This document shows positions 1,037-26,300 of a stretch of 64,000 nt of DNA, in pieces. The notes below the pieces were generated by a model. That model did no database searches. It saw only the letters and a list, made by a program, of their open reading frames with translations, and was not told where the DNA came from. Position numbers and translations under genes: made by a program. Source of the DNA: a bacterium (GTDB lineage Bacteria; Zhuqueibacterota; QNDG01; JABMRT01). The DNA lies in assembly GCA_011046415.1 (NCBI GenBank), contig DSAP01000089.1, positions 4,064 through 68,063 on the forward strand. Reading direction: 5' to 3'. The first letter of the stretch is position 1. The number at the start of each line of letters is the position of its first letter.

Positions 1037-1342
1037 TCATCCGCCCGGTTCCTTGATCGCCAGGATTTCGAGGGGATGTCTCCCCGGGTTTTCCCACGCC
1101 CGTTCGACGCCGGGTTCCGCCGCGGCCAGATCGCCCGCGGACAAGGTCACCTTTTCCCCGCCCAGGGTCATGACGCCCGTCCCGCGGAGGATGTAAAAAA
1201 CGGCCTGAACCGGTAGCGCGTGGGGTGCGATACCGCATCCAGGCCGGATCTTCAGCACGACCAGTGCGGGTGTTTTCTCGATGCCGGTCGCGCCGTCTTT
1301 CCGGAAGATCACCGTCCCTTCGTCCTTTCGGAGAATGGTCAT
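1037..1342 (-). CDS. Cupin-domain protein
   Basis: A 101-aa ORF with a cupin_2-like core (IRPGCGIAPHALPVQAVFYILRGTGVMTLGGEKVTLSAGD). Confidence 0.55.
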   Translation of the reverse strand: MTILRKDEGTVIFRKDGATGIEKTPALVVLKIRPGCGIAPHALPVQAVFYILRGTGVMTLGGEKVTLSAGDLAAAEPGVERAWENPGRHPLEILAIKEPGG

Positions 1343-1366
1343 GTTCTTTCCCTCTCTTTCGCCCCC

Positions 1367-2428
1367 TCATTCCGGCTGCGGATACCGGTACGGCCTGCCG
1401 AGATAATTCCGGAACGTCCAGGCGGCCGCCTCTTTTTGGACGACGTAATCGGGACAGAGCGGCACCTTGCCGCCTCCGCCAGGCAGGTCCACCATCAGCG
1501 CGGGCAGGGCCAGCCCGGAAATCCGGCCGCGGAGCGCGCGCAGGATGCCGAGGCCGGTCTCGAGCGGCGTGCGGAAATGATCCGCGCCCCGGGCCAGGTC
1601 GCCCTGGAGCAGATAATAGGGGCGGATGCGCATGCCGATCAGTTCCGTGAACAGCCTTTCGAGGATCTCGGGCCGGTCGTTGATCCCGCGGAGGAGCACG
1701 GTCTGGCAGCCCAGGGGGATGCCCGCGTCCGCCAGTTTCTCCACTGCGGACCGCACCTCTTCCGTGATCTCTTCCGGATGGTTGAAATGCAGATTCATGA
1801 ACAGGGGATGCGCCTTTTTCAGCACCCGGATCAGCCCGGCCGTGATCCGCCGGGGGAGCACGCCGGGCATGCGCGTCCCGATCCGGATCACCCGGACGTG
1901 GGGAATCCGTCGGAGACTCTCGAGGATTCCGCCCAGTTTCGTGTCGGAGAGCATCAGGGGATCGCCGCCGGACACCAGCACGTCCCGGATTCCGGGATGC
2001 GCCGCGATGTAGGCGAGTCCGGCCCGGATCGTGTCATCCGTGACGCCGCCGGCCCGGCCGACCTTGCGCTTGCGGGTGCAGAACCGGCAGTACACCGCGC
2101 ATTCCAGCGTGACCACGAAGAGCACGCGGTCGGGATAGCGGTGCGTCAGATGCAGTACGGGGCTGTCTTTTTCCTCGCCCAGGGGATCTTCCAGTCCGGC
2201 CGTGTCGTCGAGTTCGCGGGGGTCGGGGATCACCTGGCGGGCGAGCGGTTCGCCCTTCTCAAGCAGGCGTTCCCAGAAATACCGGTTGATGCGCATCGGA
2301 TAGACGCGGGCCACTTCGCCCAGCGCATCGGGATCACCGGAAAATGAGGGGGGCAGATCGCCCGGATCGTGGATCCCGCTCCGGATGAGGCCGCGCCAGT
2401 CGCAGGGATGTAATTGCGTCGAAGCCAA
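1367..2428 (-). CDS. KamA-family radical SAM enzyme (lysine 2,3-aminomutase / EpmB-like)
   Basis: CAVYCRFCTRKRKVG radical-SAM CxxxCxxC motif, the VSGGDPL PLP-region motif, and length typical of EpmB-like proteins. The N-terminal start is uncertain and could be an internal Met. Confidence 0.85.
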   Translation of the reverse strand: MASTQLHPCDWRGLIRSGIHDPGDLPPSFSGDPDALGEVARVYPMRINRYFWERLLEKGEPLARQVIPDPRELDDTAGLEDPLGEEKDSPVLHLTHRYPDRVLFVVTLECAVYCRFCTRKRKVGRAGGVTDDTIRAGLAYIAAHPGIRDVLVSGGDPLMLSDTKLGGILESLRRIPHVRVIRIGTRMPGVLPRRITAGLIRVLKKAHPLFMNLHFNHPEEITEEVRSAVEKLADAGIPLGCQTVLLRGINDRPEILERLFTELIGMRIRPYYLLQGDLARGADHFRTPLETGLGILRALRGRISGLALPALMVDLPGGGGKVPLCPDYVVQKEAAAWTFRNYLGRPYRYPQPE

Positions 2429-5237: not shown

Positions 5238-8200
5238 TTAGAAATCCGCCCCCAAAGACCAGTAATGCATCGGCCTTTTTTGGGTGGACACCAGATCCGT
5301 CGGCCAGGCTATATCATACCGGAGCAGCAAAAACCCCATGTTGACCCGGGCGCCGAATCCGAGTCCGCCGCGCGCCTGGTTCAGCCGGGGGAGAAGACCC
5401 GGCCCGTCCGTGAACGGCCTCCATTGCCGGTTGCTGCTCCACGCCGAGCCGACGTCGAGGAACACCGAGCCGCGAATGTTCTGAAACCCGATGCCCAGGG
5501 GTCCGCCGAGAATCAGGTACCGGATCATCGGAAACCGGAGTTCCAGATTCATCAGTGCGAAACGGGTTCCGATCATCTCGTAGAACGGCGTCCCGCGGAG
5601 CGGCCCCTCGAACGAGGAGAAGAAAAACAGGTCCTCGTAGAGGATCTCGTCGAAGACATCACGATATTTGTAATTGATCCAGTTCGTCATGCCGCCGAGC
5701 AGGAAACGCTGGGGATTCCGGCCGTTCGAGAACCCGGTAGAAAGGCGAATGGCGAGGGTATGATCCCGGACGAGCCGCAGGTATTTGCGCCAGTCTGCCC
5801 GCGCGGAATAAAAGGAAAATCCGCGATCCTCGCTGATCAGCGGGCTGTAAGTCAGGGTGATATTGGAACGGCCGCCGTTGACCGGTCCGGTCATGCCCCA
5901 GAGTACGGTATCGGTCGTGTATCCCAGGCTGAAAAAGACCGTCCGTTTTTTATAGATGGAACCGAGACTGTAGGAATAATCGCCTCCGTAATAGGGATAA
6001 TACCAGTTCAGGGCTTCCAGGTCGCGGTCGATCGCGAGGCCCGTGGCCGAAAAATCGATTCGCCGGTACCGGCTCATCGGATGGGAGAGATACAGACTCA
6101 CCCCGTAATTCCGGTCCCGGAGATATCCGTAATACCACGAATTGTCATAAATGAAATAGGTGTAATACAAATAGGAATAGTGAAATAAAGAGATGCCGAT
6201 ATCCGTCTGCTTCGGAAGATAATAATATCCGGCCATGAAATTGGAGTTTTTCAGGCTGTAAAACAGATCCGTATACAGGTTGATCTGGTGATTTCCCAGG
6301 ATGTCCGAAAGCACGATCATGGAACTGCCCTGGAGCCCGAAAAACTGGCTGTATCCGGCGCCTCCCATGACCATGTCCGGGGTGAACCGGACTTTATATT
6401 TTTTGGAAATGTAATCTCCATCCTCCGTCTTGAATTCGCCGGAATCAGGAAACGCCCGGCTCCTCAGATCCTGACCCTCGATGCGTCCCTCCCTGAAATT
6501 GCGGTCGAAGACGAAATTCTGGAACCGGCCGGCGGGCTGTTCGGCGGACGGCGAGGGGGGGGGCTCTTCAGGGTCGGCTTCTTTCTTCTGTTGCATGAAC
6601 GCGGTGTCCACGACCCGGACTTCATCCGGACGGATGTCGAGCGGATTGTTGATCAGGTAGAGATCATAGCCGGCATTCGAAAAAGCGGAGAAAACCAGGC
6701 GCGATCCTTCGCGGGACCACGAAAGCTGTGAGATGCCGGTCATGAGGTTGGTGACCGGGTAATGCGTCCCCTGGTTTCGATCATAGAGATAGATGTTGTC
6801 CACGCCGCTTTGGTCGGAGATATAGGCGATATGGCGACCGTCTGGGGAAAAAGCCGGACTCTTTTCATCGGCAGACGTGGCCGTGATCCGCGTAATCTGG
6901 CGTGAGGCGACGTCCATCACGTAAACGTCATTCTGACTGTAATCATGGGTCTGCATCCGGAAGCCGTCCGGAACAGTGCCTAAATAATCCTGCCGGTCCG
7001 AAACGAACACCAGCTCGGTGCCGTCCGCGGACCACGACGGATCCATGTCGCTGAACAGATCGTCTGTCAGGCGTTCTGTTTTTTCGCTTTCGATCTCGAG
7101 CAGGTAGATATCGGACTGGATGCCCTTGACCCCCATGAAGGCGATATGGCGTCCGTCCGGAGACCACGACGGCGAGTAGATGCCGTCCAGGTCAGGCATA
7201 AACTGACGCACGATCCTGCGTCTGCCCACATCGAGAATATAGAGACGGTCACCCCTTCCGGCCTTGGCTGCGAAGGTGATCCGGCGGCCGTCGGGAGACC
7301 AGCTCATCCCCGGCCTCAGCCAGTGCATCTGTTCGAAAAGTTCGGAACGCTGACCCTTGACGATCCGTCCCTTGTCCTTTCCATCCACCGTGCTCATCAA
7401 CCGGATGTCCATGTAATCGGATCGGTCCGAAAGATAGACCAGCTTGTCTCCCTTCGGGGAAAGCGCCGGGGCGGCGTTGAAGAAATGGTTCCGTTTTGCG
7501 TGATCCGTGAGCCGTTTCGCGATCTCTTCGGGCTCATTCCGGTCCTGGATGTCGGGCCAGTAGGTCCTCCGCAGATGCTTGTGCCAGCGGTCGGAAAGCT
7601 CCTCCAGGTCGATTCCGAGTGACTGCTTGATGCCCGTGTCGACATTGCGGTTCAGACGGATTTTCCCGAGGATCTCCCCGATCTTTTCCTGACCGTACCG
7701 GTCTGCGATATAATTGAGCAACGACTGTCCGCCCTTGTAGACCATGAACCCCGACATGTATTCGATCGGCGGCACATACCCGTTGATGACCGCGTCGCGC
7801 ATAAACATGTCGCTTTTCGTGTCCCAGCCGAGACTCTCGTATTCGGCCAGCCCTTCGGCCAGCCAGAGCGGAATCTGAAACCGGGCCATCCCGGTCACCG
7901 CCGCTCCCACACCCCCCCCGTAAAACATCTGAAATGTCACGGCGTGCGTCAGTTCATGGTGGATGACATGGCGGAAATCCTCATAGCTGCCCTGGAAGGG
8001 AAGGGCGACGCGGTTCTTGAAGATTTCGGTGAATCCGCCGACGGATTCGCCGATATCGGACAGCGTGACATTGGTCTGCTGGAAATCGTTGGCGCCGTTG
8101 TAGATGATGATCGGGACCCGCGATTCCAGATCATATCGGAAATTTTTCTTCAGCGCCACATAGCTGGATTCCGCCACATCGGCCGCGAACTCCGCCAGCC

Positions 8201-8384: not shown

Positions 8385-8409
8385 GATGAACCCCGATCCC
8401 TGAGTGAAG

Positions 8410-8994
8410 TTACAAATCCGACTCATCTTTCCAACGCGTGATACGCCACTTTTGATCCTTGTTTTTTTTAAACGTGAATACAGCTCTGCCGGTGACGGTG
8501 TATCCGGTCTGCTCACCCACCAGGGTCAACCCGAATCCCCGGCTGATGTCGCTCGTTGTTTCGCCCGCGTTCTCATAAATGGTCTCATTCCAGACCAGAT
8601 CGATGACCTGGAAATGGCGGAACATCCGGCCCGTGGTGAGGAGGTCTTCGTGCCGTCCCCAGGATACGAACCGGCTCTCGTCCGGATTGAAGTAGACGAA
8701 AAGAAAGCCCGTATCGAGCACGTCGCTGTAGAGCAGGGAGTCGCGGAAGGTGTACGCGATCTTGAAATTCTGCAGCACCTCCTGCGGTGTCGCCTGGGAC
8801 GTGATGATCATGTCCGTCGCCTCCAGGTTGTCGGTCAGTCTGGGCGCGAAGGGGTTGAGACAGCCGGAAGAGAGGACGAGACCGGCGCAGACCGCAGCCA
8901 TCACCGCGAACCGGGTCGTGACGAACCGCATCCGTTTCTTTCGGCTCCCGGATGTCTTTCCGGGAACGATTTTATGGTTCCCACCCCGTTTCAT
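8410..8994 (-). CDS. Lipoprotein, hypothetical
   Basis: Lipobox LVLSSGC after a basic N-terminus. There is a 25-nt gap to the downstream Omp85-fusion gene. Confidence 0.5.
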   Translation of the reverse strand: MKRGGNHKIVPGKTSGSRKKRMRFVTTRFAVMAAVCAGLVLSSGCLNPFAPRLTDNLEATDMIITSQATPQEVLQNFKIAYTFRDSLLYSDVLDTGFLFVYFNPDESRFVSWGRHEDLLTTGRMFRHFQVIDLVWNETIYENAGETTSDISRGFGLTLVGEQTGYTVTGRAVFTFKKNKDQKWRITRWKDESDL

Positions 8995-9215
8995 CCTGTT
9001 TTCCTGCCCATTCCGCCATTCGGAAAGCCCTGGGGAACGGGGAAAAATGCGTCCAGGTTTTTACCCGGTCCGTGCGTTCCGCATATCGGACAGGACCGTA
9101 AAGCCATCATAATCATTTTCACGGACAAAGTCCAATGGTTCTTTTTGGGTGTCCCATGATTAGACAATTTGAATCGCGGATTCAATCCCGTCGCATCGAA
9201 ATCTCGCGTCGGCGA

Positions 9216-10337: not shown

Positions 10338-10546
10338 AGATTTTTCCTGATTATCTCCCGGACCAACCCCCAGGGCGAACCGGCTTCGGGATTCCGATGA
10401 TATGAATCAAGCCGCCTGTCGAGTTCTGCTTTCTGAGATTCAGTCAAACAAGAAAAGGCAGACCGGGATCTGCCTTTTCTGTTGGATGTTTCGGAACGGA
10501 AACCTCTTACAGATTCTCGATAACCGCCTGCCCGAATTCGGAACAC
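10334..10546 (-). CDS. Putative addiction-module antitoxin (TIGR02574-like C-terminus). The N-terminus is uncertain and may be truncated.
   Basis: C-terminal [37 protein letters not shown] matches the addiction module component family. The N-terminal 30 aa of the track ORF overlap the icd 3' end and look unlike the family. Confidence 0.5.
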
Positions 10547-11856
10547 TTCAGCTTGGTCGCCCCTTCCATCTGGCGTTCGAGGTCATAGGTGACCCGCTTC
10601 TGGCCGATGGTCTTTCCCATCGCACGGATGATCCTCTCCGCCGCCTCGCCCCATCCCAGATGCTCCAGCATCATCGTACCGGAGAGAATCACGGAGCCGG
10701 GATTCACCTGATCCTTGCCCGTGTATTTCGGAGCCGTGCCGTGTGTCGCCTCGAACAGCGCGATCCGGTCGCTCATGTTGGCGCCCGGCGCGAGCCCCAG
10801 CCCGCCCACCTGGGCGGCGCAGGCGTCCGACAGATAATCCCCGTTGAGATTGGGAAGCGCGACCACATCGTACTCGTCCGGGCGAAGGAGTACCTGCTGG
10901 AACATCTGATCCGCGATCCGGTCCTTGATCACGATCCGGCCGGCCGGCTTCTTCCCGTCGTATTGATCCCACAACTCCTTTTCCGTCACGATCCGGTCCC
11001 GGAATTCCTCCCTGGCCAGCTCATATCCCCAGTCGCGGAAGGCGCCCTCGGTGAATTTCATGATGTTGCCCTTGTGGACGAGCGTCACGGACTCACGGTT
11101 GTGATCGAGCGCATACTGGATGGCCTTGCGCACCAGCCTTTTCGTGCCCGTGATGCTGATGGGTTTGATGCCCACGCCCGAATCCGGGCGGACCGTCTTG
11201 CCCATTTCCTCGGAGAGGAAGCGGATCATCTTTTTCGCCTCCGGGGTGCCCTGTTCGAATTCGATGCCGGAGTAGACGTCCTCCGTATTTTCCCGGAAAA
11301 TCACCACATCGAGCCTTTCCGGCTCCTTGACGGGACACGGCACGCCCTCGAACCAGCGTACAGGCCGGACGCAGGCATACAGATCGAGCTGCTGACGCAG
11401 CCCCACGTTCAGGCTGCGGAAGCGCCGGGTGACCCATTTCGAGCCGCATTTGACACAGGCCGCGGGCCGGGCGTCTCCCTCTCCGTTCTGTTCCGCCGCG
11501 CATTCCAGACAAACATAGTGGAAACCGCCGACCGGCGTGGTGAGCGGCCCCTTGATGGCTACGGCATATTCCCGGATGGCGGCCAGGGTGTCTCCGGGCA
11601 GGACGGTGTCGATTCCGTATTTCTGAATGGCCTTGAGTCCCGCGAAAATTTCGAACCAGACGATCTTCTTTTTGCCGCCGTAGGCCTTCGCGACCGCCGC
11701 ATCGAGCACGGGTTGTGTCGCGCGCCAGATATCGGGACCGGTCCCGTCTCCCTCGATGAAGGGGATGACGGGATGATCCGGAACCCGGATCTGATCGCCT
11801 TCGAATGAGATTTTTTCTCCCGCGGCCGGTGGGACCAGTTTTTCAAACGCCGCCAT
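10507..11856 (-). CDS. icd: NADP-dependent isocitrate dehydrogenase (prokaryotic homodimeric type) carrying a Cys4 insertion
   Basis: Alignable end to end with E. coli Icd ([57 protein letters not shown]), except for a 32-35 aa insertion. Confidence 0.9.
11419..11523 (-). other. In-frame insertion in icd encoding a CxxC-(N16)-CxxC zinc-ribbon-like knuckle immediately N-terminal to the conserved regulatory Ser (RSLN)
   Basis: PVGG-[[35 protein letters not shown]]-RSLNV here, against PVGG-GI-RSLNV in E. coli. The codons were read directly from the DNA. Confidence 0.8.
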
Positions 11857-11882
11857 AAAGACCTCCCGGAGTAATGGATATT

Positions 11883-13814
11883 TCAGTCGGTAATCTGCTG
11901 TTTCGCAAAAGCCAGTGCCCCGCCTGCCCGCAGGATCCGGACGTCCCGTCCGGACAAATTGTGAAGGACGCGAATGTCGGTTCCCTGTGTCTCGTTTCTC
12001 AGCATCATCCTGCCGGAATCCAGGCCGGAGGTGTCGATCGTCACGGTGTCGTCCTGTGCGATCGTTTCGTAGTCTCCCTCGTCCTCGAACACGAGAGGGA
12101 GGATACCGAAATTAATCAGATTGGCCAGATGGATCCGGGCGAATGATTTGACGACGACCGCCTTCACGCCGAGCGCCATGGGGGCCAGTGCCGCGTGTTC
12201 CCGGCTCGATCCCTGTCCGTAATTGGCGCCGCCCACGACGATGCCGCCTCCGGCTTCCCGTGCCCGTTTGGGGAAGGTGGGGTCCACCGCCTCGAACACA
12301 TATTCGGATATCGCGGGGATGTTGGACCGCAGCGGAAGGATTTTCGCCCCCGCGGGCATGATATGATCGGTCGTGATGTTGTCGCCGACCTTGAGGAGCA
12401 CCGTTCCCCGGACCGGATCGGACAGGGGTCCCTTGATCGGCAGCGGCTGGATATTCGGCCCGCGCTGGATGACGACCCTCTCCGGCGCATCAGACGGGAG
12501 GAGGATCATGGCATCGTCCACGGGAAAAGTTTCGGGGGTGCGGACCTGAACCGGCTCCATGCCCAGGTCGCGGGGATCCGTAATTTCACCGGTCAGGGCC
12601 GCCGCGGCCGCCGTCTCCGGGCTGCACAGATAAACCCTGGCGCTCTTGGTGCCGCTGCGTCCCGAGAAATTCCGGTTGAAGGTGCGCAGCGAAACCGAAT
12701 CGGTCGGGGGCGAGAACCCCATGCCGATACACGGGCCGCACGCGTTCTCAAGGATGCGGACGCCCGAGGCGACGATGTCTTTCCACTGACCGCCGTCGAT
12801 CAGGGCGGTCAGGACCTGCCGGGATCCGGGAGACAGCGCGGCCGAGACACCGGGATGGATTTTGCGTCCTTTCAGCATGGCGGCGATCATGGCCACGTCC
12901 CGGAAGCTTGAATTGGTACAGCTGCCCATGGCCACCTGATGAACCTTCGTCCCCTTGAGAGAATGCACAGGCACCACGTCATCCGGTGAATGCGGCCGGG
13001 CGATCAGGGGCTCCACGGCGGACAGATCGATTTCGAGTACCTCGTCATAGTCCGCATCCGGGTCCGCCCCCAGCGGGAGGTAATGTTCGTCCCGGCCCTG
13101 GGCCCTGAGAAAGATCCGCGTCATCTCGTCGCTCGGAAAAAGCGAGCTGGTGGCTCCGAGTTCGGCCCCCATGTTCGTGATCGTGGCGCGCTCGGGAACG
13201 GTCAGCGTCTCCACACCGGGGCCGGAATACTCCATCACTTTACCGACACCGCCTTTGACGGTGAGCCTCAGGAGGATTTCGAGGATGACGTCCTTGGCCG
13301 AAACGAACGGCCGGAGCCTGCCGGTCAGACGGACATTCACGATCTTGGGCATGACGAGGTGAAACGGCCGTCCGGCCATGGCCAGGGCGATGTCGAGTCC
13401 GCCCGCGCCGATCGCCAGCATGCCGAGTCCGCCGCAGGTCGGGGTGTGGCTGTCGGATCCGAGCAGCGTCTTTCCGGGAAGTCCGAACCGCTCGAGATGG
13501 ACCTGATGGCACACACCATTTCCGGGACGCGAAAAGCGTATCCCGTATCGGGATGCGATGGTCTGGAGGAACAGATGATCGTCCGCATTTTCGAATCCGG
13601 ACTGGAGGGTGTTGTGATCGACGTAGCTGACTGAAAGCTCTGTGCGTATCCGGTCGAGCCCCATGGCCTCGAACTGAAGATAAGCCATGGTGCCGGTCGC
13701 GTCCTGGGTCAGGGTCTGATCCACACGGATAGCAATCGGGGAACCCGCAATGGATTCCCCGCTTATCAGATGACCCGTGATGATTTTCTGTGTCAGATTC
13801 TGTGGTATCATCAT
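11883..13814 (-). CDS. Aconitase-family hydratase (fused catalytic and swivel domains, about 640 aa). It is probably an aconitate hydratase, given the adjacent icd.
   Basis: Motifs [33 protein letters not shown] and [17 protein letters not shown]. Start trimmed to MMIPQNL, where the ATG overlaps the upstream TGA as ATGA. Confidence 0.75.
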
Positions 13815-14482
13815 CCATTTCCGCGGCCTGCGATGGCCTCGCGTTGTTTTTGGGAATTCAGATGCATCTTGCGCAGCAGTTTCCAGATCGTCAGCTTCCC
13901 GACCCGGATAAATCCGTACCGGTCCGTGTCGAGTTCCCGGGCGATCTGGCCGTGTCCCCATGAAGGGTGATCCAGCGCGATCTTGCGGATTTTTTCTTCG
14001 AGTCCTTCAGGAACATCCTCATCGGCTCCCTCCGAAGTCCGGATTTCCGTTTCCGCGTTTTCGGGTTCCTCTTGAACGGAATCAAGCTCTGCGGACTCTT
14101 CCTCGATGAAAGTTCGTGCTCCGTCCGCGCGATTGAAATCCCGGATCGCCGCCTCGACCGAATCATAGGCTTTGAGTATATAATGGAATTCGAGGAGTTC
14201 GAATACTTCGTATACGTCCGGAATCATGTTGGCCAGCTTGAGGTCACCGCCGCGCTCCCGGATTCCTTTGATCTCGCTGATGAAGATTCCCCAGCCGGCG
14301 CTCGAAATATAATCCACGTTCCGGAGATCGATGATGACGCGGAAGACACCCGATTTGAGCAGAGAATCCAGAGCGCGTTCGAGCTCTGAGGATGTGGTGG
14401 TGTCGATGTATCCGCCCACCTTGATGATCGAAATATCCTTTTGGGTCCCCGTTTTCTCTACAGAAACTTGAATGCCTTCCAT
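13811..14482 (-). CDS. STAS-domain anti-sigma-factor antagonist (SpoIIAA/RsbV-like) with a C-terminal transposase-type HTH extension
   Basis: STAS core with the phosphorylatable-Ser motif NVDYISSAGWG. Then an acidic linker and ALDHPSWGHGQIARELDTDRYGFIRVGKLTIWKLLRKMHL, an HTH_32-like sequence. Start taken at MEGIQVSV. Confidence 0.75.
   Translation of the reverse strand: MEGIQVSVEKTGTQKDISIIKVGGYIDTTTSSELERALDSLLKSGVFRVIIDLRNVDYISSAGWGIFISEIKGIRERGGDLKLANMIPDVYEVFELLEFHYILKAYDSVEAAIRDFNRADGARTFIEEESAELDSVQEEPENAETEIRTSEGADEDVPEGLEEKIRKIALDHPSWGHGQIARELDTDRYGFIRVGKLTIWKLLRKMHLNSQKQREAIAGRGNG
13814..13993 (-). other. HTH_32-like (IS3/IS481 transposase N-terminal type) DNA-binding module appended to the STAS protein
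   Basis: About 45% identical over about 55 aa to the HTH segment of the neighbouring kinase/phosphatase protein (the HPxYG..I..EL..xKYGF signature). Confidence 0.6.
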
Positions 14483-14556
14483 TTTCATCTCCTTAAAAAA
14501 ATTATCATTATATAACATAATGACACAACGAAATTTAATAGAAAATCACACCATTG

Positions 14557-17500
14557 TCAACTTTTTTTCTGATAAACCGCCCTCTGCCGGATAAGCCGCT
14601 GCATCCGTTTAATGCGTTCCACGATATCGCCGCGCATGGGATCGCGCTTTAAAACCTCTCCCCACTGCCAAACCGCCCTCTTATAATCTCCCTGATTGGC
14701 GTAGATGACCCCCAGATTTTCGAGGATATGGACATTGTCCGGCATCAGCTCGCGGGCGGCCGTATACGCACGCTTGGCCTTTTCGAGCTGCCCCAGACGA
14801 AAATAGGCATCGCCCTGGGCATGGTAGGCTGCACCGAATTTCTGGTCGCATGCGATGGCCTTGTTGAACTCTTCGATGGCCCGAGCAAAGAGACCTTCCT
14901 GGTAAAACCACTGGCCGGATTCCAGAAACCGCATCCGGTTGAGCCGCCGGGCATTCTCCGGGTTGGCCTCCAGGATGGCCGGTTGCCGAGTCTCCAGATC
15001 CGACCCTTCACCGAGAAGGGAATCCGTCCATATCTCCATGTCCGTCTCGTCGAAAATCTCTCCGGTTATTCCGGATTCTTTCCGGCCCGAATCCTGGTTT
15101 TCCTCGCCGATCAATTCATCTATCAGAGATTCCTGCGAACCATCGGATAAAAACCCGGACATCAGGGGAAAAAACGCCGGATCATCCCCGGATTCTGTAA
15201 CCGCTTCCGGCAATACATCGCCACTGTCGTCTCCTGCGGCGAGCGGGTCGTCAAACGAGTCATCCATCCGTATCAGGAGACCGGAAGAATCATCAACGAG
15301 TGATTCAAACGAGAAGTCATCCCGGGGATCAGAGGACGGCTCACCCATCCTCTCAGTCAGCGCCTCGTCGATGTTTTCGGGGTGGGGCTGCTCGGATTCG
15401 GATTCGACGTCCAGTTCTTCCCAATCGGCTTCCATGGCTGAAATTTCCTCGTCATCGCCGGCGGACTCTCCGTCGTCTTCGGATGCGATGCCGGTGAAAT
15501 CGCGTTCGATCGCTTCCGCAAGGTCCTTGTCTCCGGGCGGCTGGACGGTCACTTCCGGTGTCTCCTGCACGGAAGGATGTTCTTCTGCTTCCTTATGTTC
15601 GGGTGGGGCGCCGCGTGAAACGGCGATCTCAGGTTGTTTTTCGGCCGGTTTTCCCTGGAGGTGATCCGTTTCGGGCGTCTTCTTTTCGGGCAGAGACGTT
15701 CCGGGCGACGGTTTCGAAGGGGCGGGCTTGCGGAGTGTCGGCGAAATAATAACCCGACCGTCCAGCGTCAGCATGGGCGTCCCCGGTGTTTTCATCCGTT
15801 TTCCGCGTCCGCCCCGCTCCACGAAGGCCATGCGGAGTTCCTTGGTATTGAGACGGTTTCGCACCAGTTCTTCGTATAACCGGGCTTCATCGATCTGGAA
15901 AAAGCCGTATTTTTCCGTGTTGAGCTCGTCACGGATCCGTTTCGGTCCGTACTCGGGATGGGTCTTGATTACATCAAAAATCTTGGCCTTGTCTTCGATG
16001 GCGATGTGTTTTTCTTCGATGAGGGAGCGGCCGACCCGGTCTTTCATTCCCTGCTCGCCGTTTTTTTCATAGAGTTTTTTATATTTATAATAAGTCGACG
16101 TGGAAACGCCCGCCTTCTCACAGGCCTCCTTGACTGTCATGCCTTCCTTCTGCACCATGCGAAGCAGATCCGTATGGATATTCAGAAACACCTCTTCCAC
16201 GCTCATCTTCTCGCGGATCGCAACCAGGGTGATGTCATCGCTCTGCGGCTCCCCGCCCGTAAAGGTATAGATCTCCTGTTTGATGCTCTCGACGAGGGGT
16301 TCCACCTTCTGATCGCCCGCCTTGCGGATCACGGACAAAAACCGCTCGTCTCCGAACCGGTTCCGGTTGATGTCCATCGCCTCGGTGATGCCGTCCGTAT
16401 AGACGATCAGCACATCATCCGGACGAAGCTGAAGCGTGTCCGACTCGATGGAATTTCTGAACAAAGTCTGGTCGGGCAGGTTGATTCCGATCGGAAAACC
16501 GCGCGGGTTCAGATAGTAGCTTTTCTGGCTTTGACCGCGGTAAAGAATCATGGGATTATGACCCGCGCTGGCATAGTTGATCGTCCTGCGTTTCGAGTCG
16601 AGGATGATGTAAAACACGGTGACGAACATGCCGCGCTTCATGTCGTTGATCACGAAATCATTGACTTTGGACAGCACATCGGCCGCATTCTTGTTGCCCC
16701 GCGCCTCCGTCCTGAGCGCCGTCCGAATCATGGTCATGACCAGTGATCCGGGCACCCCTTTGCCGGACACATCCGCGACCACGATTCCCAATGAATCCCT
16801 GTCCACCCTGAAAAAATCGAAATAGTCACCGCCCACCTCCTTGGCGGCCTCGTAGCAGGAGGCGATCTCATAGCCATCGATTTCAGGGAAGGTCGCCGGA
16901 AGCAGGGTGTGCTGGATTTCCTGGGCCACCTGCATTTCTTTCTGGAGCCGTTCCTGTTCCGCCAGATTTTCCTGGGATTTTCTGAATTTCTCCGTGATCT
17001 CGTTGAAGGCCTGGGCGATCTCGCCAATCTCGTCGTTCCCATCGAATTCCATCTCGTCCCGGACCTCGCCGTGGCCCAGATCGCGGACCCATTTGGAGAG
17101 TTTCTTGAAGGGACTCATGGTAAGATAGACGAGTCCGAATGTGAAGAGATATCCGAAAGCAAGCGCGAGAATCGCCTTGATAAGAGTAAATTGACGTTCC
17201 GATTTGATCGTTGCATCGATCATCTGTTTGTTCATCAACACATGGACGGTACCCAGGCGGATATTCCGGTTGTCCACCTGCTTGAGGGCCGGTTCGACGA
17301 CATCATACACCCTGACCCCGTCATGCTGAAACTGATACACATGATCACGGATCGGGTTCGCCCCGGCCGGCAAGATGAATTCATTGTGAAGCGCTTCGAG
17401 GTTGACGACTCCCTGAATTACGTTGATCGTATCCACGACGATGATCTCGACGATGCGGGGATGATATTCCCTGTGAATATCGGTCACGATCGTGGACAAG

Positions 17501-18153
17501 TCCCACCAGTTTGGGGGGTCGTAAGAAAGATACTCGATACTCTGGTGGCCGACGGACCTGGCCAGCGTTTCACCGGAAGCGAGCGCATCATTCCTGATTT
17601 TATTGTCAAGATGAAGATAGGTCCAGATGAACCAGATCAGCATCAACGCCGTCAGGAGCACCGAAGCGAGCGCGGAAAACCGGGTTTTCATGGAAAACGG
17701 AATCTCCGGAGTACGGAGCCGTTTCATGCCGGTCTTTCTCGATTTGGTGAGCCGGAGTTCATTGCCTTCCGGAAGTTTCCGGTAATCGATTTTGTCGATC
17801 ACACGCCGGATAATAAATATCCCGAGGCCGCCTTTCTTGCCGATATGCACGTAACGCTGGAGATCCGGGTCTTTCACCTGTCTGGGATCAAAGGAGTGCC
17901 CCTGGTCCACCAGCGACACCGTCACGTCCTTATCCCGGATTATCATCCGCATGGTGATCGCGCCTTCCCAGTCGCGGTAGGCGTGCCGGATGATGTTGGT
18001 GCCGGCCTCGTCGATTGCCAGTTTGAAGGCGTTGATCACCTGCTCTGAGATCCCGTGTTTCCGTCCGAAATGCATCACGGAATCGCGCATTTCACCCAGA
18101 TGATCGATCTCGGCAGGGAAGGTCCATTCTTCTTTGATGACGCGTTTGAACAT
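14557..18153 (-). CDS. Multidomain partner-switching regulator: RsbW-like GHKL Ser kinase, TM, periplasmic sensor, TM, HAMP, PP2C/SpoIIE phosphatase, transposase-type HTH (HTH_28 plus HTH_32), polyacidic region, TPR repeats
   Basis: Residues 1-145 are HATPase_c-like (AIDEAGTNIIRHAY, GGLGIFIIRRV). There are two hydrophobic helices. HAMP is NDEIGEIAQAFNEITEKF. PP2C is GGDYFDF..VADVSGKGVPGSLVMT..GHNPMILY..IVYTDGITEA. HTH is MTVKEACEKAGVSTSTYYKYKK followed by THPEYGPKRIRDELNTEKYGFFQ. A D/E-rich stretch of about 170 aa follows, then C-terminal TPRs. Confidence 0.8.
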   Translation of the reverse strand: MFKRVIKEEWTFPAEIDHLGEMRDSVMHFGRKHGISEQVINAFKLAIDEAGTNIIRHAYRDWEGAITMRMIIRDKDVTVSLVDQGHSFDPRQVKDPDLQRYVHIGKKGGLGIFIIRRVIDKIDYRKLPEGNELRLTKSRKTGMKRLRTPEIPFSMKTRFSALASVLLTALMLIWFIWTYLHLDNKIRNDALASGETLARSVGHQSIEYLSYDPPNWWDLSTIVTDIHREYHPRIVEIIVVDTINVIQGVVNLEALHNEFILPAGANPIRDHVYQFQHDGVRVYDVVEPALKQVDNRNIRLGTVHVLMNKQMIDATIKSERQFTLIKAILALAFGYLFTFGLVYLTMSPFKKLSKWVRDLGHGEVRDEMEFDGNDEIGEIAQAFNEITEKFRKSQENLAEQERLQKEMQVAQEIQHTLLPATFPEIDGYEIASCYEAAKEVGGDYFDFFRVDRDSLGIVVADVSGKGVPGSLVMTMIRTALRTEARGNKNAADVLSKVNDFVINDMKRGMFVTVFYIILDSKRRTINYASAGHNPMILYRGQSQKSYYLNPRGFPIGINLPDQTLFRNSIESDTLQLRPDDVLIVYTDGITEAMDINRNRFGDERFLSVIRKAGDQKVEPLVESIKQEIYTFTGGEPQSDDITLVAIREKMSVEEVFLNIHTDLLRMVQKEGMTVKEACEKAGVSTSTYYKYKKLYEKNGEQGMKDRVGRSLIEEKHIAIEDKAKIFDVIKTHPEYGPKRIRDELNTEKYGFFQIDEARLYEELVRNRLNTKELRMAFVERGGRGKRMKTPGTPMLTLDGRVIISPTLRKPAPSKPSPGTSLPEKKTPETDHLQGKPAEKQPEIAVSRGAPPEHKEAEEHPSVQETPEVTVQPPGDKDLAEAIERDFTGIASEDDGESAGDDEEISAMEADWEELDVESESEQPHPENIDEALTERMGEPSSDPRDDFSFESLVDDSSGLLIRMDDSFDDPLAAGDDSGDVLPEAVTESGDDPAFFPLMSGFLSDGSQESLIDELIGEENQDSGRKESGITGEIFDETDMEIWTDSLLGEGSDLETRQPAILEANPENARRLNRMRFLESGQWFYQEGLFARAIEEFNKAIACDQKFGAAYHAQGDAYFRLGQLEKAKRAYTAARELMPDNVHILENLGVIYANQGDYKRAVWQWGEVLKRDPMRGDIVERIKRMQRLIRQRAVYQKKS
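15814..16161 (-). other. Transposase-derived HTH_28 plus HTH_32 module embedded in the kinase/phosphatase protein
   Basis: Residues about 665-780 of the 1198-aa protein. No DDE catalytic domain follows. Confidence 0.6.
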
Positions 18154-20119: not shown

Positions 20120-20362
20120 TTATTTTACGAAAGCCATTTTGAATTTAAATATCTCTCCATTTCCGGTCTGCATGATCAGATGGTAGACGCCGTTCAAGAC
20201 CTCCCAGCCCCTGTCATTGCAGCCGTCCCATGTCCAGCGGTTCACCTGGCCGGCCGACACCTCCGATTCGGCGACGTCATATGACTTGACGAGCTGGCCG
20301 ACAAGGGTATAGATTCTAAAGGAAACGGAGGTCGGTTCCGGAATGTAGTAATAGATCGTGGC
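20120..20362 (-). other. Coding segment for the T9SS-type (Por_Secre_tail / FlgD-Ig-like) C-terminal sorting domain of the giant protein
   Basis: Matches the general TIGR04183-type pattern (NPF...I.Y.I..V..IY.L.GQLV....G...W.G.....G..GVY.......K...K). Confidence 0.55.
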
Positions 20363-23300
20363 GGTCTCCCTGCCCGGCTCACCGAACGGATTGGGACTGC
20401 TCCACAATCGGGCTTCTTCGTTTGGATTGAAAATCCGGAGTGGCGCCGAAGGAATGCTTTCCAGTTCGTCTCCTGTCGGACTCTTGACGAGTACGTCACG
20501 GTCTGAAGCGGCTTCTCTCGCCGAAATGGCCTGTCCGTCCGGCACGCTCACCCTGAAAAAGGGGACGGTCTGTGACTCCGCGATGCGTCCGCGAATCAGA
20601 ATTTTTTTGCTCTGATTGTAAGGAATTTCGAGACCGGACAGGGAAATCCGGACCGGGTTGGCCTCCGGAATCTGGGCCGTCGTTCCGTAAATGTCCGGCC
20701 CATTCATCTCGACCGCCTCGAGACGGGACACCGCCGACCGTGGCCCGATATCTTCGCCTTCCCGTCCCGTGAGGGTCAGCCAAATCTCGCGGATGATGAT
20801 GGGATAGGCACCGGTTTCTCCCCGGTTCTGAAACTCCAGGCCGAGCAGGGGGACGTTGCTTTGCCCGGGCGTCAGGGACTGATTTGCCCCGGACAAGACC
20901 AACGGCGTCACAGAGAGCCAGGTTGATTGTAACCGGACGGCGACGGCATGATAATCCCGTCCGACAAATGCAGGTTGATCGGTATTCTCATCAACGGGAA
21001 TCTTCGTGAGCCGGGATTCGATCTGGGCGGCCGCGGTGGAAGGTTGTGACGGGGCTTTAATCGTCCAGAAGGCCTCGCCGCCGGAGAGTGTTTGCGCCAG
21101 GACCTCCCGTGTGGTATATTGAGGTGGAAGCGCGAGGAGCGAGACTTCGATGTCACCGATGGTTTGGGCTTCCCCGGAATTCTGAACCGCGGCCCGGACC
21201 ACGAATTCCTGTCCCAAAGAAACCGTGCCGTATTGTGCAGCCTCCGGCGGACTGTCGATCGTCAAGAATAGCGCAAGATCGGCCTTGGAAACGGTGTTCA
21301 GGGGGAGTGCATTCGGTACTCCTCCGATGGGAACCGCGGGTTGCAATGCATCAACACCCCTTGCCGTAACGATGAGAGTGCCTTCGGATACAGGCGTCGT
21401 CGGAGCCGTGACCAGCCAGGTCACCGTATCTCCGCTCGCGCTCTGGGTCAGGTTGTTTTTGGTGTGATATCCGAAGGGGAGTTCGATCCGTGCCGTGATT
21501 TCCGTGACATTGTCGGAAATCATTTCTGTCCGGACCACGAAGGACTGTCCCGTGGACAGGATACCGTCCGAGGCGCCCGACGGTGCGGAAATGGACGTGA
21601 CGGATCTCAGCCGGCTGGCGATGGTGGTAATCGGCGCCTCGGCAAATTGATCTGTGACGACAACCCGGACATCCGTGTTTTTATCGATCGGATACTGGAT
21701 CAGATCGACGCGGACCTTGTCGTTTGTCGAAGGTTCATTCGGGGCCCTGAGTCGCCATTCTGCCGGAACCTCAGGAGTGATACCGGCCGAATCCGACGCC
21801 GAGATCAACTGGTATCGATCGGGCCAGCGTATCCTCACGCGTCCCTCATTCTTTAATGCGGAAGATCCCTGCTTGAGCAGTCTGCCCTTCACCTTGAATT
21901 CCTGATTGACAGAAACCACACCGTCGGCCGGTTCGGTTTCTATACTCAGAGAGAGAGAGGCTGGACTCTGGACAAATACCACGGCGGTGGGATCGCTGGC
22001 CTCTCCGATGGGTGCGTCATCCGTTCCGTTCTCCCGTTTAGCCCCCTGAATCCGGGACGTAAAGGTTTCTCCGGAGAGGTTTTCCTGATTTGCCGCCAGT
22101 ACGTCAAACCACACCGAGTCACGTCTGGAGGGTTCAAGGCGGGTTAACAGGACCTGCGGATTTTCGATGGCCGAAAGGCCATTGGATTCCATCCGGACGT
22201 CGATGTTGCGGATCGTGAAACTCAAACCGTTCTCGACGATCACCAAGACACGAAAAGCCTGTCCGGTATTCACGAAGCCGTTTTTTGACTCGGTGGTGTT
22301 TACTGTCGCGATTTCCGTCGAGATAATCCGGAAATCCGGTTTGGACTCGATAAAGACCTGCGCCTCGTTCTCTGCCCTGAGCGTCCGCAGGTCGTTGCGG
22401 TCTTTGCCCCCGGCCCGGACGCGGATCCGGACATCTCCTCCGTAGGTACCGGTCGTATTCACATGATAGATCAGCGAATCGGTCACCCCGGGGGCGAGGA
22501 TCAGGCCGCCTCCTTTCAATGCGTTCGGGGGAACGACTTTATAATCCGTCTGATAAATGCCGCCCACGAAGAAGGCGACGCTGTCGGCAGAGGGTCTCGA
22601 GAGTTCGATCGCCGACCCGCCTGTGTTGCGGACGGCGACCTTGATGTGCCACGGATCGGTTTGACCGCCGAGAAGAAGAGTCTGTGAAGTCGAGACGGAC
22701 AATACCTGAAAGACCGCAGGATTCTGGATGGTCGCCGTGGCCGTCTTGTCTGGAGAATTCCCGTCCTCCAGGAAAAGGGCCGTGTTTTCGGCAAATCCGC
22801 TTGCAGAAACGGTGAATGTCTCCGATCCGGGAAGGGTCGACGCCGTCACCGGAACGGTCAGAGAATGAACCTGCCCACCGGATAATGTTCCGATATAATG
22901 TGCCCTGACAAAAGATGAGGTGCCGGAACTTCCGATTTCCACCTCCACATCCCGCATGGCGTCTTCGCCGAGGTTTTCGACCTGGAGGAAGAGATCGAAA
23001 ACCTGCCCGCGGTTCACATACGGGCTGTTCGGGGCGCGGTTGGTGACTTGCCGGACGATCAGATTGGCCGGTGCTTCGATCAGGACTTGCCCGTGACCGC
23101 CGTCGCGCGTGTCTGTCTCGAGTCGCCGCCCTGTAGTCATTTCGAGGCCTGCAACATAGGCGTCGATCCTGCAAAGACCGGCGGCCTGATCGGTCGTCCG
23201 TGTCACTTCAAATATCAGACTGTCGGTTTCACCTCCCTCAAGAACCCAGTCACCGGTCCAGGAAGGCGGATAGGTCAACTCCCATGTCTGGGGAGCGCCC

Positions 23301-26300
23301 AGAGAAAATTCCAGATAGCTCGCGGTCGTACTCGAGTCGATCGCCGTCGCGCTTCCTCCGGTGTTGGTGGCCACGACGGCCACACGCCAGGGCATGACCT
23401 GGCCCCGAGAGACCTCGGCCTGGGACGGCTTGACCATATGGATCACCAGATTCGCCGGCGTCTGTACCAGGAGGTTGGTAAATGCATCATCCGACAGGGT
23501 GACCCCGGAGCCCAGCAGATACACGAAAAGCCGAATCGTGGCGCCCCCCGCATCGCTGCCGGTGTGAAGAACGGGAATCAGGAGCGAATCGATCCCGTTT
23601 CCGGGCAGCGTCTCCTCGGCGCTGCCCCAGAACGCCGTCGGCAGCTGGAGGGTGTAATCGTGGCGCACGATACCGGCCACATTGAATTGAAGCCGGACAC
23701 TGTCGAGACGGACCTCTGATCCGCTGAAATTGCGGACGGTACAACGGAGATACCAGACCGAATCCTGATCGGTTGTGACGGATTGAATGCCGGTGGCCCT
23801 GTCTTTCCCGACCGCCCTGAAATCGGAGACCAGAATGCCCGGAGAAAGCACCACATCGAACAAATTGGATTCCGAAAAAATAAAACCGCCTGTCTGAGTC
23901 ACTCGCATTCGGTTGGCCGTCCTGGCCTGATGCACCGTGACGCCGGTCGTCAACACGCCGTTGCTGAAATTCGGGCTGACATCGGGTCTGATCGTGCCTG
24001 TCAGATCCGAAATATCCACGGTTTGGGTGAAATTGGTCTTGACATTGCCGTAAGCGTCTTCTGCGGTAAGCGTGGTTGAAAAGGGAACCCCCACGATCTG
24101 ATCCCCGATATGCTGGATCGCAAATCGGTTCAACGCCGCGGGCAGCACGTTGAACAGATTGGAACTTCCCCTTTGCACGCCCCCCTGGTAAACCATGATT
24201 CTCACATCATTCCTGGCCCCTGTAATTCGAACCGTTTGTGTGAGGAGGCCGGCGCTGAACGATCCGGTCGCAGCCGGCGTCAGCGTGCCTGTGCTGTCGG
24301 AAAGGGAAACCTGTCCCGCAAACTGGGTCACGATATTCTGATATGTGTCGAGCGCGGTCAGGTATATCTGGAAGTCTGTACCCGCCATCTGCGGACTGGC
24401 CACCGGGGCCACAGAAATGGTCTGAACCGACCCCGGATTGACATTGAAGACCTCCGAGACGCCGCTTTTCCCGAGTCCGCTCACGGTAAGCCGGTTCTGT
24501 GACTGGCTCTTCGTGATGGTTACCGTGGCGGTCCCCACACCGGATGAGAAGGTGATCTGTTTCACATCATTGGTCCCGGTAAGGTCTGCGAGATTGACCG
24601 TTTCATTGAAGCCGGTGACGAGATTGTTGTTCACGTCATAGGCGCGGACGGTCACGGAGAATCCCTGACCCGCGGTCTGCGGCGTCGATATCGGATCAAA
24701 TGTGAAATGGTCCACGGTCGTCGGGATCACGTTGAAGGTATTCGAGATGGCGCTTTGCGTACCACCGTCCCGGACGACCGTGATCCGGTCATTCGTTTGG
24801 GTCTGGGTCACCGAAATCGTGCCAGACCAGATGCCGCTTTGAAAATCATCGCTCTGAGACCGTGAAAGCGATCCCGTGCCGGTATGGCCGATGTTGACCC
24901 GGTTTCCCGGTCCGCTAAACCCTGTCACGGTGTTGTCATACGCATCCTGCGCGGTCACGGTGAGGCTGAAGGGCACGCCCGGCGTCTGGGTGGCGATCTG
25001 TGCGATGGCGAAATGATCCAGTGTATTGGGCGCCACGTTGAAGGCGTTCGATGTCCCCGTATGGCCGGCGCCGTCGTCCGCCGTGACCCGGACATCGTTG
25101 ACCGCCTGTGTAATCGTCAGGGTGACCGTACGGGTGCCGTTCGAAAAGGCGCCGGAAACAGACGGCGAGATCACGACGGGAGAGGAACCCGACGCGGCTG
25201 AAAGCGGAACCGTGCCGTTAAACGACTGTGAGACATTTCCGAAGGCGTCGCGTGCCGTGATCGTGACCGGAAAACCGGTTCCCGCCGTTCGCGGACTGGG
25301 GACTGCCGAAAACTCAAACCGGCTGACGCCCGCTCCGGCCACATTGAATGGGTTGGAAGTCCCGCTTTTACCCAGCGCCGTCGCGGTCAGGACATTGCTG
25401 TTCATGGCTTGCGAGATCGAAATCGTACCCGTCCATGTCCCGTCGACGAGGGTGACCTGCTGCGGCGAATGCGTTCCCGTCTCATCACGGATATTCACCA
25501 CCTGGTTGGTGAAACCGGTCACAATATTGTTGTTGACATCTTCGGCGCGGATTGTTACGGAAAAACCGACGCCCGCCGTCTGGTTCACGGGAATCGCGGA
25601 AATCACGAAATGGTCGACCGTACTCGAAATCACATTGAAGGCGTTCGACTGGCCGGTGTGTCCGGACCCGTCGTTCACCGTAATCCGGTCATCCGTCTGG
25701 ATTTGATTGATACGCAGGTTTCCGGTCCAGACACCGCCAGTAAAATCGCCGCTCTGGGTGGGAATGAGGGTTCCCGTACCCGTATGGGAAATGTTGACCC
25801 GCCGGCCTGAGCCGGAGAAGGAAGCGGCCGTGTTATCGAAGGCATCCCTCGCCGTGATGGTCACCAGAAAAAATTCTCCCGCCGACTGGGTGCTGATGTT
25901 GGACAGGGTGAAATGATCCACGGCCGCGCCGTTGACATTGAAGGGACCGGATGTCCCGGTGCGGCCGCCTCCGGAAGCCTGGATATATATGTCCGTGTTC
26001 GCCTGGGTAATCCGGACATTCCCCGTCCAGACGCCCGAGGAGAAATTTTCTGTGCTCGCCGAAGATGTGGCATCAACCGTGACCGTACCCGTCTTCTCGC
26101 TGAGGGTCGCCGGATTCGTATAATCTGTCTTGATATTGTCGTAACCGTCATAGGCCGTGATGGTCAGGCTGAACGGAACACCGGCCGTCTGCGGACTGGA
26201 GATGGGGCCGAATACAAATTGATCCAGGGCTCCCGGTAACACATTGAATGCGGCGGATGATCCGGAACTCGTACCGGATGTCGCCAGGATCGCATTGGAA

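Follow-up and report, generated by a model that had tools for sequence, protein, structure and literature searches.

This report concerns a zinc-ribbon-like module in the isocitrate dehydrogenase (IDH) of a bacterium placed in the Zhuqueibacterota, as encoded in a 64,000-nucleotide stretch of contig DSAP01000089.1 (assembly GCA_011046415.1, positions 4,064 to 68,063). The whole stretch is referred to here as the window, and coordinates are given in its numbering unless another contig is named. The module is a 34-residue insertion with four cysteines, placed in the C-d loop beside the active site of an enzyme whose catalytic residues are intact, and it marks a monophyletic group of IDHs found under several phylum labels. 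On balance we consider it probable that the insertion is a constitutive structural Zn(Cys)4 ribbon, which would cap and stiffen the C-d loop beside the nicotinamide adenine dinucleotide phosphate (NADP) site and sterically exclude a kinase of the AceK type.

The gene in question, icd, lies at 10507..11856 on the minus strand, which corrects the strand of the original prediction, and its open reading frame (ORF) encodes a homodimeric-type NADP-dependent IDH of 449 amino acids, filed at NCBI as HDQ44895.1. The protein matches Pfam Iso_dh (PF00180) with 298 bits against a cut-off of 27 (E=1.3e-88) and scores above both curated equivalog cut-offs for NADP-dependent IDHs (665.1 versus 567.3 bits for TIGR00183; 638.1 versus 490 for NF005425). 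In a phmmer search of all PDB chains its best match was the P. aeruginosa enzyme ICD (E=3.6e-165), and its core is 61-63% identical to the enzymes of E. coli, P. aeruginosa and B. pseudomallei. An AlphaFold2 model of the whole protein (mean predicted local distance difference test score, pLDDT, 90.1; predicted TM-score, pTM, 0.90) has the three-domain IDH fold, and Foldseek superposes it on solved prokaryotic NADP-dependent IDHs, all of them of 430 residues or fewer, with query TM-scores (TMq) of 0.82-0.86 and target TM-scores (TMt) of 0.88-0.92.

The active site is likewise conventional. The catalytic, substrate-binding and metal-binding set is intact in the window protein (E. coli K100, T104, T105, S113, N115, R119, R129, R153, Y160, K230, D283, D307 and D311), as is the set that specifies NADP (K377, Y378, V384, Y424, R428 and R325, equivalent to E. 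coli K344, Y345, V351, Y391, R395 and R292'). All 22 of the catalytic, metal-binding, substrate-binding and NADP-specificity positions checked are kept across the ribbon-bearing clade; 18 are invariant in 161 of 161 sequences, and the remainder vary by one gapped sequence or by a V/I exchange. By its residues and by the family models, then, the window protein is a catalytically intact NADP-dependent IDH, predicted to be active and to form a homodimer.

The position of the insertion follows from alignment to the solved enzymes. Each solved IDH aligns to the window protein as two blocks, query residues 4-111 and 146-449, which in the E. coli enzyme correspond to residues 4-109 and 111-416; therefore residues 112-145 (34 amino acids; 11422..11523, minus strand) substitute for Gly110 of the C-d, or "phosphorylation", loop. 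Residues 112-146 are encoded by 11419..11523 on the minus strand. The first knuckle, C116-L-E-C119, is encoded at 11500..11511 (C116 at 11509-11511, C119 at 11500-11502) and the second, C134-V-K-C137, which is followed by G-S, at 11446..11457 (C134 at 11455-11457, C137 at 11446-11448), both on the minus strand. Alignment and codons thus bear out the original prediction of an in-frame insertion of about 34 residues with a Cys4 zinc-ribbon-like pattern. The spacing of 16 residues that it gave for the two CxxC pairs is incorrect, however, as 14 residues intervene between C119 and C134. Directly after the insert come F146-R147-S148 (11413..11421, minus strand), the counterparts of E. coli I111-R112-S113. 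E. coli Ser113, the equivalent of S148, is the substrate-binding serine that AceK phosphorylates in E. coli. The insert was said to abut this regulatory serine; it does lie in the C-d loop next to the conserved residue, but S148 stands three residues past the end of the insert. K102, T106 and T107 lie within a few residues before the insert, and S148 and N150 within a few residues after it.

Except at its tip, the module is as strongly conserved as the catalytic core of the enzyme that carries it. Conservation was assessed over 161 ribbon-bearing sequences (159 distinct; core identity 64-100%), in all of which C116, C119, C134, C137, V115, E122, P131 and F146 are invariant, which goes beyond chance; R145 is arginine in 160 of the 161. 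F146, R147 and S148 are invariant in 94 aligned members, F146 and S148 also throughout the 161. Outside its tip the insert has a column entropy of 0.71, versus 0.76 for the catalytic core. Variation and shortening are confined to the six-residue tip (residues 124-129, NGEGDA; 11470..11487, minus strand), where column entropy rises to 2.10. The conserved positions include the charged or polar surface residues E122, Q123, R130, K136 and R145, which are invariant or almost so. Across the clade the module ranges from 31 to 35 residues in length. A 31-residue variant, FKFVCLDCAAEL-NDRP-AKCPKCSSEWITPRF, occurs in six loci (L041, L042, L044-L047), with a change of Q123 to L and a four-residue deletion in the tip; it is nested in a single derived subclade of Elusimicrobia, and its knuckles are 10 residues apart. 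The signature YVCLxC...RPxKCxKCGSxW[VI]TPRF-RS describes the clade and provides an easy marker for ribbon-bearing IDHs.

Several lines of evidence show that the insert is a genuine feature of the gene. The identical window protein is present on separately sourced contigs (NCBI/JGI, 113,685 nucleotides; Logan/ENA, 123,618 nucleotides), and the guanine-plus-cytosine content of the insert is 0.63, compared with 0.61 for icd. All of the closest 120 protein clusters from a collection of 5.8 billion sequences carry the insert, at identities from 100% down to 69% and lengths of 439-477 residues. A second sampling, in which one genome per GTDB species was scanned for a ribbon-specific peptide pattern, returned 49 loci, 47 of them with an intact ribbon-bearing icd. 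One of the remaining two, in Nonlabens (L049), was a false positive. The other, L048, in an Elusimicrobia metagenome-assembled genome (MAG; JACRNU010000014.1, ~5857..7005), has an icd with a frameshift inside the ribbon that leaves just the second half of the insert in frame, so that this copy is a pseudogene or else contains a sequencing error. For the window gene, the identical protein from separate sources, the many homologues and the matching composition exclude mis-assembly, frameshift and chimera, and the contention that the protein is otherwise conserved and colinear holds up against alignment, homologues and models alike. An intein or mobile-element origin was considered and ruled out: the insert is only 34 residues long, has no splicing motifs and a host-like composition, and is ancient and fixed. 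A tblastn search of the 64-kb window found no internal duplication or paralogous ribbon.

Structure prediction, which had been suggested as a check on the original prediction, models the insert confidently both in context and alone. For residues 111-150 the full model gives pLDDT values of 90-94 and places strands at 114-116, 121-122 and 142-144, and the isolated 35-mer, modelled from its own alignment, shows the same strands at a pLDDT of 90.8; the insert is accordingly predicted to fold on its own. Its two CxxC knuckles sit at the turns of beta-hairpins, flanked by the model strands. When the 35-mer was compared with the PDB by Foldseek, most neighbours were Cys4 zinc modules, with TMq of 0.65-0.76 in most cases and E-values of 0.1-2, which are not significant, the domain being tiny. 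These neighbours include Rpb12/ABC10-alpha, Sulfolobus Trf, the N-terminal zinc domain of MCM, PF0610, valyl-tRNA synthetase (ValRS) and the zinc module of Sir2, as well as small archaeal and eukaryotic ribosomal proteins, PhlB and rubrerythrin. By pattern and predicted fold, the insert is zinc-ribbon-like.

At the sequence level the module stands apart from the generic zinc-ribbon families, such as Zn_ribbon_8, Zn_ribbon_SprT, Zn_ribbon_PF0610 and Rpb12/ABC10-alpha. It shares with them two CxxC knuckles on beta-hairpins and finds its best structural neighbours among them, but it falls below every Pfam gathering threshold (best, Zn_ribbon_8, 18 bits versus 34.4), and therefore belongs to no defined zinc-ribbon family. 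Among 45 members, just 19 gave E<0.1 with Zn_ribbon_SprT or Zn_ribbon_8. A profile of the ribbon was also searched against 1.84 billion protein representatives, and among the 150 matches listed there was no stand-alone homologue and none in another context; one match was genuine, a 158-residue Icd fragment, and the list was dominated by multi-repeat proteins in which 5-28 repeats matched. The likeness of the ribbon motif G-x-RP-x-KC-x-KCG-x-x-[WYF] to the TGEKPYKCxxCGKxF linker found in C2H2 zinc-finger proteins is probably why the search was flooded by these repeat proteins, presumably C2H2-type arrays. The likeness is a practical pitfall for anyone building a hidden Markov model of the insert. 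Querying a word-indexed protein collection with a ribbon alignment of 45 columns yielded 37 candidates but not a single match.

The original prediction had called for an alignment of diverse IDHs to establish the spread of the insert, and this places it in one clade that spans several phylum labels; it is common there and not unique to this genome. Every locus with a ribbon-bearing icd from the GTDB-species scan belongs to a MAG; most of these bear the label Elusimicrobiota, and the rest are labelled Cloacimonadota, KSB1, Caldithrix or Fibrobacteres or are unclassified. Some ribbon-bearing protein clusters carry the label Armatimonadota. Relatives lacking the ribbon were sought by scanning metagenome contigs for the uninterrupted junction TTP[VA]GG-x-FRS-x-NV; the nearest one found, L153, served as the next query, and none of its 120 closest relatives has the ribbon. 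In this sister clade the junction reads GG-G-[YFIH]-RS in 120 of 120 sequences. Its members, where a source is named, are labelled WOR-3, Marinimicrobia, Eisenbacteria, Thermoanaerobaculia and, in some cases, Cloacimonadota, so that Cloacimonadota-labelled MAGs occur in both clades. The sister clade thus comes from similar uncultured phyla, and its nearest sequences reach 73% core identity to ribbon-bearing enzymes, but it lacks the ribbon and retains E, D or Q at the position of L74, discussed below. In neighbour-joining trees of 81 ribbon-bearing and 108 ribbon-less representatives, built from core columns only with the insert excluded, the ribbon-bearing enzymes were monophyletic in 197 of 200 bootstraps. 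It follows that the ribbon arose a single time and was kept thereafter. As a separate observation, L153 carries a different insertion, of ~24 residues, in the surface loop equivalent to E. coli 259-275; its relatives (P0286-P0405) are 414-453 residues long, mostly 425-439, which suggests smaller versions of this insertion in others too.

The acquisition of the ribbon was accompanied by few changes in the rest of the enzyme. An initial comparison with three proteobacterial outgroups gave 31 "clade-specific" core residues, most of which vanished against 185 ribbon-less sequences. Only six core positions proved specific to the ribbon clade (L74, L77, F200, L309, T379 and L436). Of these, L74 and L77 discriminate most sharply; they are separated by one helical turn where helix b begins (11626..11637, minus strand; E. 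coli E72 and T75). L74 is leucine in 99% of ribbon-bearing sequences, whereas 177 of 185 ribbon-less sequences have E, D or Q; L77 is leucine in 88% of the former and 3% of the latter. These hydrophobic substitutions may form a new patch to which the ribbon's aromatic stalk (F112, Y114, W141 and F146) could dock. A mutual-information signal linking the ribbon to the clasp region (E. coli 166-183) was rejected as evidence of a contact, as it was marginal (p=0.03) and control windows behaved alike.

What is known of the C-d loop suggests why a module at this point might matter. The phosphorylation loop of the E. coli enzyme has its equivalent in the C-d loop and d helix; part of this segment is disordered in apo S. 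tokodaii IDH, and the loop runs along bound NADP+, its residues contacting the nicotinamide and its ribose (PMC6313988). For the ribbon-bearing enzyme, we propose that a self-folding module with two CxxC knuckles took over the flexible, glycine-rich turn of the loop on a single occasion, and that its four cysteines bind one structural Zn2+. A stalk of two strands, YVC and VTR, would lift the ribbon from the lip that the large domain contributes to the active-site cleft, and the ribbon would pack back onto the hydrophobic patch of L74 and L77. The loop that it would thereby cap, permanently and rigidly, follows bound NADP(H) and includes Ser148, which binds isocitrate. In other IDHs this segment, which binds both the cofactor and the gamma-carboxylate of isocitrate, is mobile or disordered; here the ribbon would pre-order it. 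The effect of such a cap would be to modulate stability, loop dynamics and cofactor handling, rather than to switch the enzyme on and off. Most likely the window enzyme runs in the ordinary oxidative direction, together with a probably co-transcribed aconitase.

The same cap would bear on regulation by phosphorylation, in terms of which the insert was first interpreted. An invariant serine, S148, is present at the N-terminus of helix d, as in AceK substrates, but a serine here is not diagnostic of AceK regulation because nearly all IDHs keep it for substrate binding. The window protein lacks an E. coli-like C-d loop of the kind that allows AceK to dock, as its loop carries the 34-residue module, whose bulk would probably deny a kinase of this type access to the serine. 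No AceK domain was detected among the large ORFs scanned in the 64-kb window, and we know of no AceK in ribbon-bearing lineages. The AceK framing is thus probably irrelevant to this enzyme. [quoted passage not shown] The insert in those enzymes, however, is of ~13 residues, is free of cysteines and, by the alignment spans, falls in another part of the chain, whereas that of the window protein is a metal-ribbon-like module in the C-d loop itself.

Several considerations weigh against a purely structural cap. The contacts proposed between the ribbon and helix b, NADP and the partner subunit are inferred, and the scan for covariation between ribbon and core revealed no robust sign of contact. Statistical significance is lacking for the matches that Foldseek found with the 35-mer, and, as one published study indicates, not every Cys4 or CxxC protein binds zinc (PMC11241148). 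Conservation alone, moreover, cannot tell a functional cap from a module that is retained because its loss would misfold the protein, and the near-invariance of the charged and polar surface residues hints at a specific interaction beyond a structural role.

An alternative that we regard as unlikely is a redox or zinc switch, in which oxidation of the Zn(Cys)4 site or loss of zinc would unfold the ribbon next to the NADP site and Ser148, and so reversibly alter IDH activity, flux through the tricarboxylic acid (TCA) cycle and the supply of NADPH, in place of phosphorylation. Zn(Cys)4 sites can be redox switches, for example in Hsp33 and RsrA, and the insert is three residues from the substrate-binding serine and within 5-10 residues of K102, T106 and T107; many of the hosts also come from anoxic or micro-oxic habitats. 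On the other hand, most Cys4 ribbons inserted in enzymes are structural, as in the adenylate kinase lid, Sir2 and aminoacyl-tRNA synthetases. No redox partner gene is conserved beside icd, and no evidence specific to switching was found. In addition, some groundwater lineages of Elusimicrobia encode oxidative phosphorylation and a TCA cycle, so the ribbon may not be confined to strict anaerobes. The original prediction had seen in the insert a metal- or redox-sensing element that could confer a new mode of TCA regulation; nothing that we found favours switching over a constitutive structural role.

It is also improbable that the ribbon is a docking module, which contacts a protein partner (an oligomer, aconitase, another TCA enzyme or a regulator) or nucleic acid. 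Zinc ribbons often mediate macromolecular contacts, PhlB, Rpb12 and small ribosomal proteins are among the neighbours found by Foldseek, and the conserved surface residues E122, Q123, R130, K136 and R145 could form part of an interface. The gene neighbourhood might be thought to supply candidate partners. Directly upstream of icd is an aconitate hydratase gene, acn (11883..13961, minus strand; Pfam Aconitase and Aconitase_C; NF005558, 960 bits versus 612), and the 26-nucleotide spacer between the two contains a ribosome-binding site, GGGAGG (11862..11867, minus strand), 5 nucleotides upstream of the icd ATG; acn and icd are probably co-transcribed. Further upstream on the same strand are, by their Pfam domains, a STAS-domain gene (13811..14518) and a gene for a 1198-residue HATPase_c_2-HAMP-SpoIIE(PP2C)-HTH-TPR protein (14557..18153), which look like a partner-switching serine kinase/phosphatase module. 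Homologues of the large SpoIIE gene lie 1.4-3 kb upstream of ribbon-bearing icd in five other loci (L005, L008, L011, L020 and L036, Caldithrix and KSB1 labels included), making six with the window. This recurrence of a serine-phosphorylation system beside IDH may be plain synteny. Aconitase is adjacent in 13 further loci, and thus in 14 with the window, but not in the Elusimicrobia loci, whose neighbours are unrelated to the TCA cycle. The neighbourhood was consequently rejected as a clue to a partner of the ribbon, no neighbour being kept across the whole clade. Two further points argue against docking: the net charge of the consensus is only about +2, weak for binding of nucleic acid, and the profile search described above found no homologue of the module outside IDH among its listed matches.

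A metal- or redox-gated lid, in which zinc occupancy or thiol oxidation would set the order of the loop beside Ser148 and the NADP pocket and provide these uncultured phyla with a post-translational, non-phosphorylation valve on TCA flux and NADPH production, at the very position where enterobacteria rely on AceK, seems to us quite improbable. More doubtful again is the proposal that the ribbon is a neutral passenger, a self-folding mini-domain tolerated in a surface loop and conserved only against misfolding, of no consequence for catalysis or regulation. Such neutrality would be in keeping with the unchanged catalytic machinery, with the existence of a sister clade that works without the ribbon, and with the small number of core positions that changed alongside it. 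Yet no loss is seen in 161 sequences over several phyla, apart from the one frameshifted copy; conservation equals that of the catalytic core, exposed charged residues included; and the joint substitution of L74 and L77 suggests that the ribbon is integrated with the core.

Highly improbable is a rubredoxin-like Fe(Cys)4 centre that shuttles single electrons to and from the nicotinamide site. Rubredoxin and rubrerythrin are found by Foldseek, though only at ranks 34-50, and the second knuckle is CxxCG-like. The first, however, is CLxCA and lacks the glycine, and the knuckles of rubredoxin are separated by ~29 residues, as against 14 here and 10 in the short variant. The enzyme also lacks a flavin or similar mediator that could couple two-electron to one-electron chemistry, and the best structural neighbours are zinc ribbons. 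Finally, an artefact of assembly, frameshift or annotation is scarcely credible as the source of the insert. Nothing speaks for it beyond the one homologue, L048, that is frameshifted inside the insert; against it stand the identical protein on contigs from separate sources, 159 distinct homologous sequences from many studies, and a continuous reading frame of normal composition, and the recurrence across samples already refutes it.

Some other features of the window may be recorded. The program-called acn ORF begins ~50 codons too early, as the match to NF005558 starts only at residue 53 (MMIPQNL...); the true start is probably near 13817, which removes the apparent overlap with the STAS gene. 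A 2301-residue ORF (20120..27025, minus strand) has no Pfam match beyond a sub-threshold FlgD_ig-like domain at its C-terminus, and may encode a giant secreted or surface protein. Two tandem, overlapping genes (55331..57616 and 57613..60630, plus strand) each encode an MFS transporter fused to a spermine/spermidine-synthase-like domain, to which the second adds TPR repeats. Sizeable ORFs without a Pfam match are located at 30594..31673 and 32714..34588 on the minus strand, these two flanking a PilM-like gene (31691..32704), and at 1220..2347 and 8404..9159 on the plus strand.

The constitutive structural ribbon would have counterparts in other enzymes. Small structural Zn(Cys)4 modules that vary among lineages lie near the active-site cleft of several nucleotide-binding enzymes, including the LID of Gram-positive adenylate kinases, Sir2 and the sirtuins, and class I aminoacyl-tRNA synthetases. 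The principle is the same, and Sir2 and ValRS are among the Foldseek neighbours of the insert, but the host enzymes are unrelated and no sequence homology has been demonstrated. Among IDHs, the closest comparison is the E. coli-type NADP-dependent enzyme (TIGR00183/NF005425; PDB 3ICD, 5M2E and 3DMS), with which the window protein shares its fold and its catalytic, magnesium-binding, substrate-binding and NADP-specificity residues in addition to the core identity given above. The difference is that a single residue of that enzyme, Gly110, is replaced here by 34 residues with four cysteines, and AceK regulation is not expected. We considered whether the insert might be an already characterised feature of a known IDH subfamily, and found no sign of this in the PDB, Pfam, NCBIfam or the searchable full-text literature. 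It occurs in no solved IDH structure, as judged by phmmer and Foldseek against the PDB, and is captured by no Pfam or NCBIfam model; source annotations describe the ribbon-bearing proteins simply as NADP-dependent IDH, and the full-text search, which left subscription-only literature and InterPro/CDD outside its reach, found no cysteine or zinc module in an IDH. Because of that limit, our description of the ribbon-bearing IDHs as a large, undescribed clade is provisional.

Few enzymes of central metabolism have been studied as thoroughly as IDH, whose C-d loop is the textbook example of control by phosphorylation at an active site. A clade distributed over several poorly known phyla appears to have rebuilt this very loop into a cysteine-metal module, the metal being predicted from the pattern of cysteines. 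If the ribbon is structural, as we favour, the clade would constitute a natural experiment on loop rigidity, induced fit and cofactor handling in IDH. If a switch should prove to be true, the ribbon would represent a second, independent way to gate the same site that AceK gates in enterobacteria.

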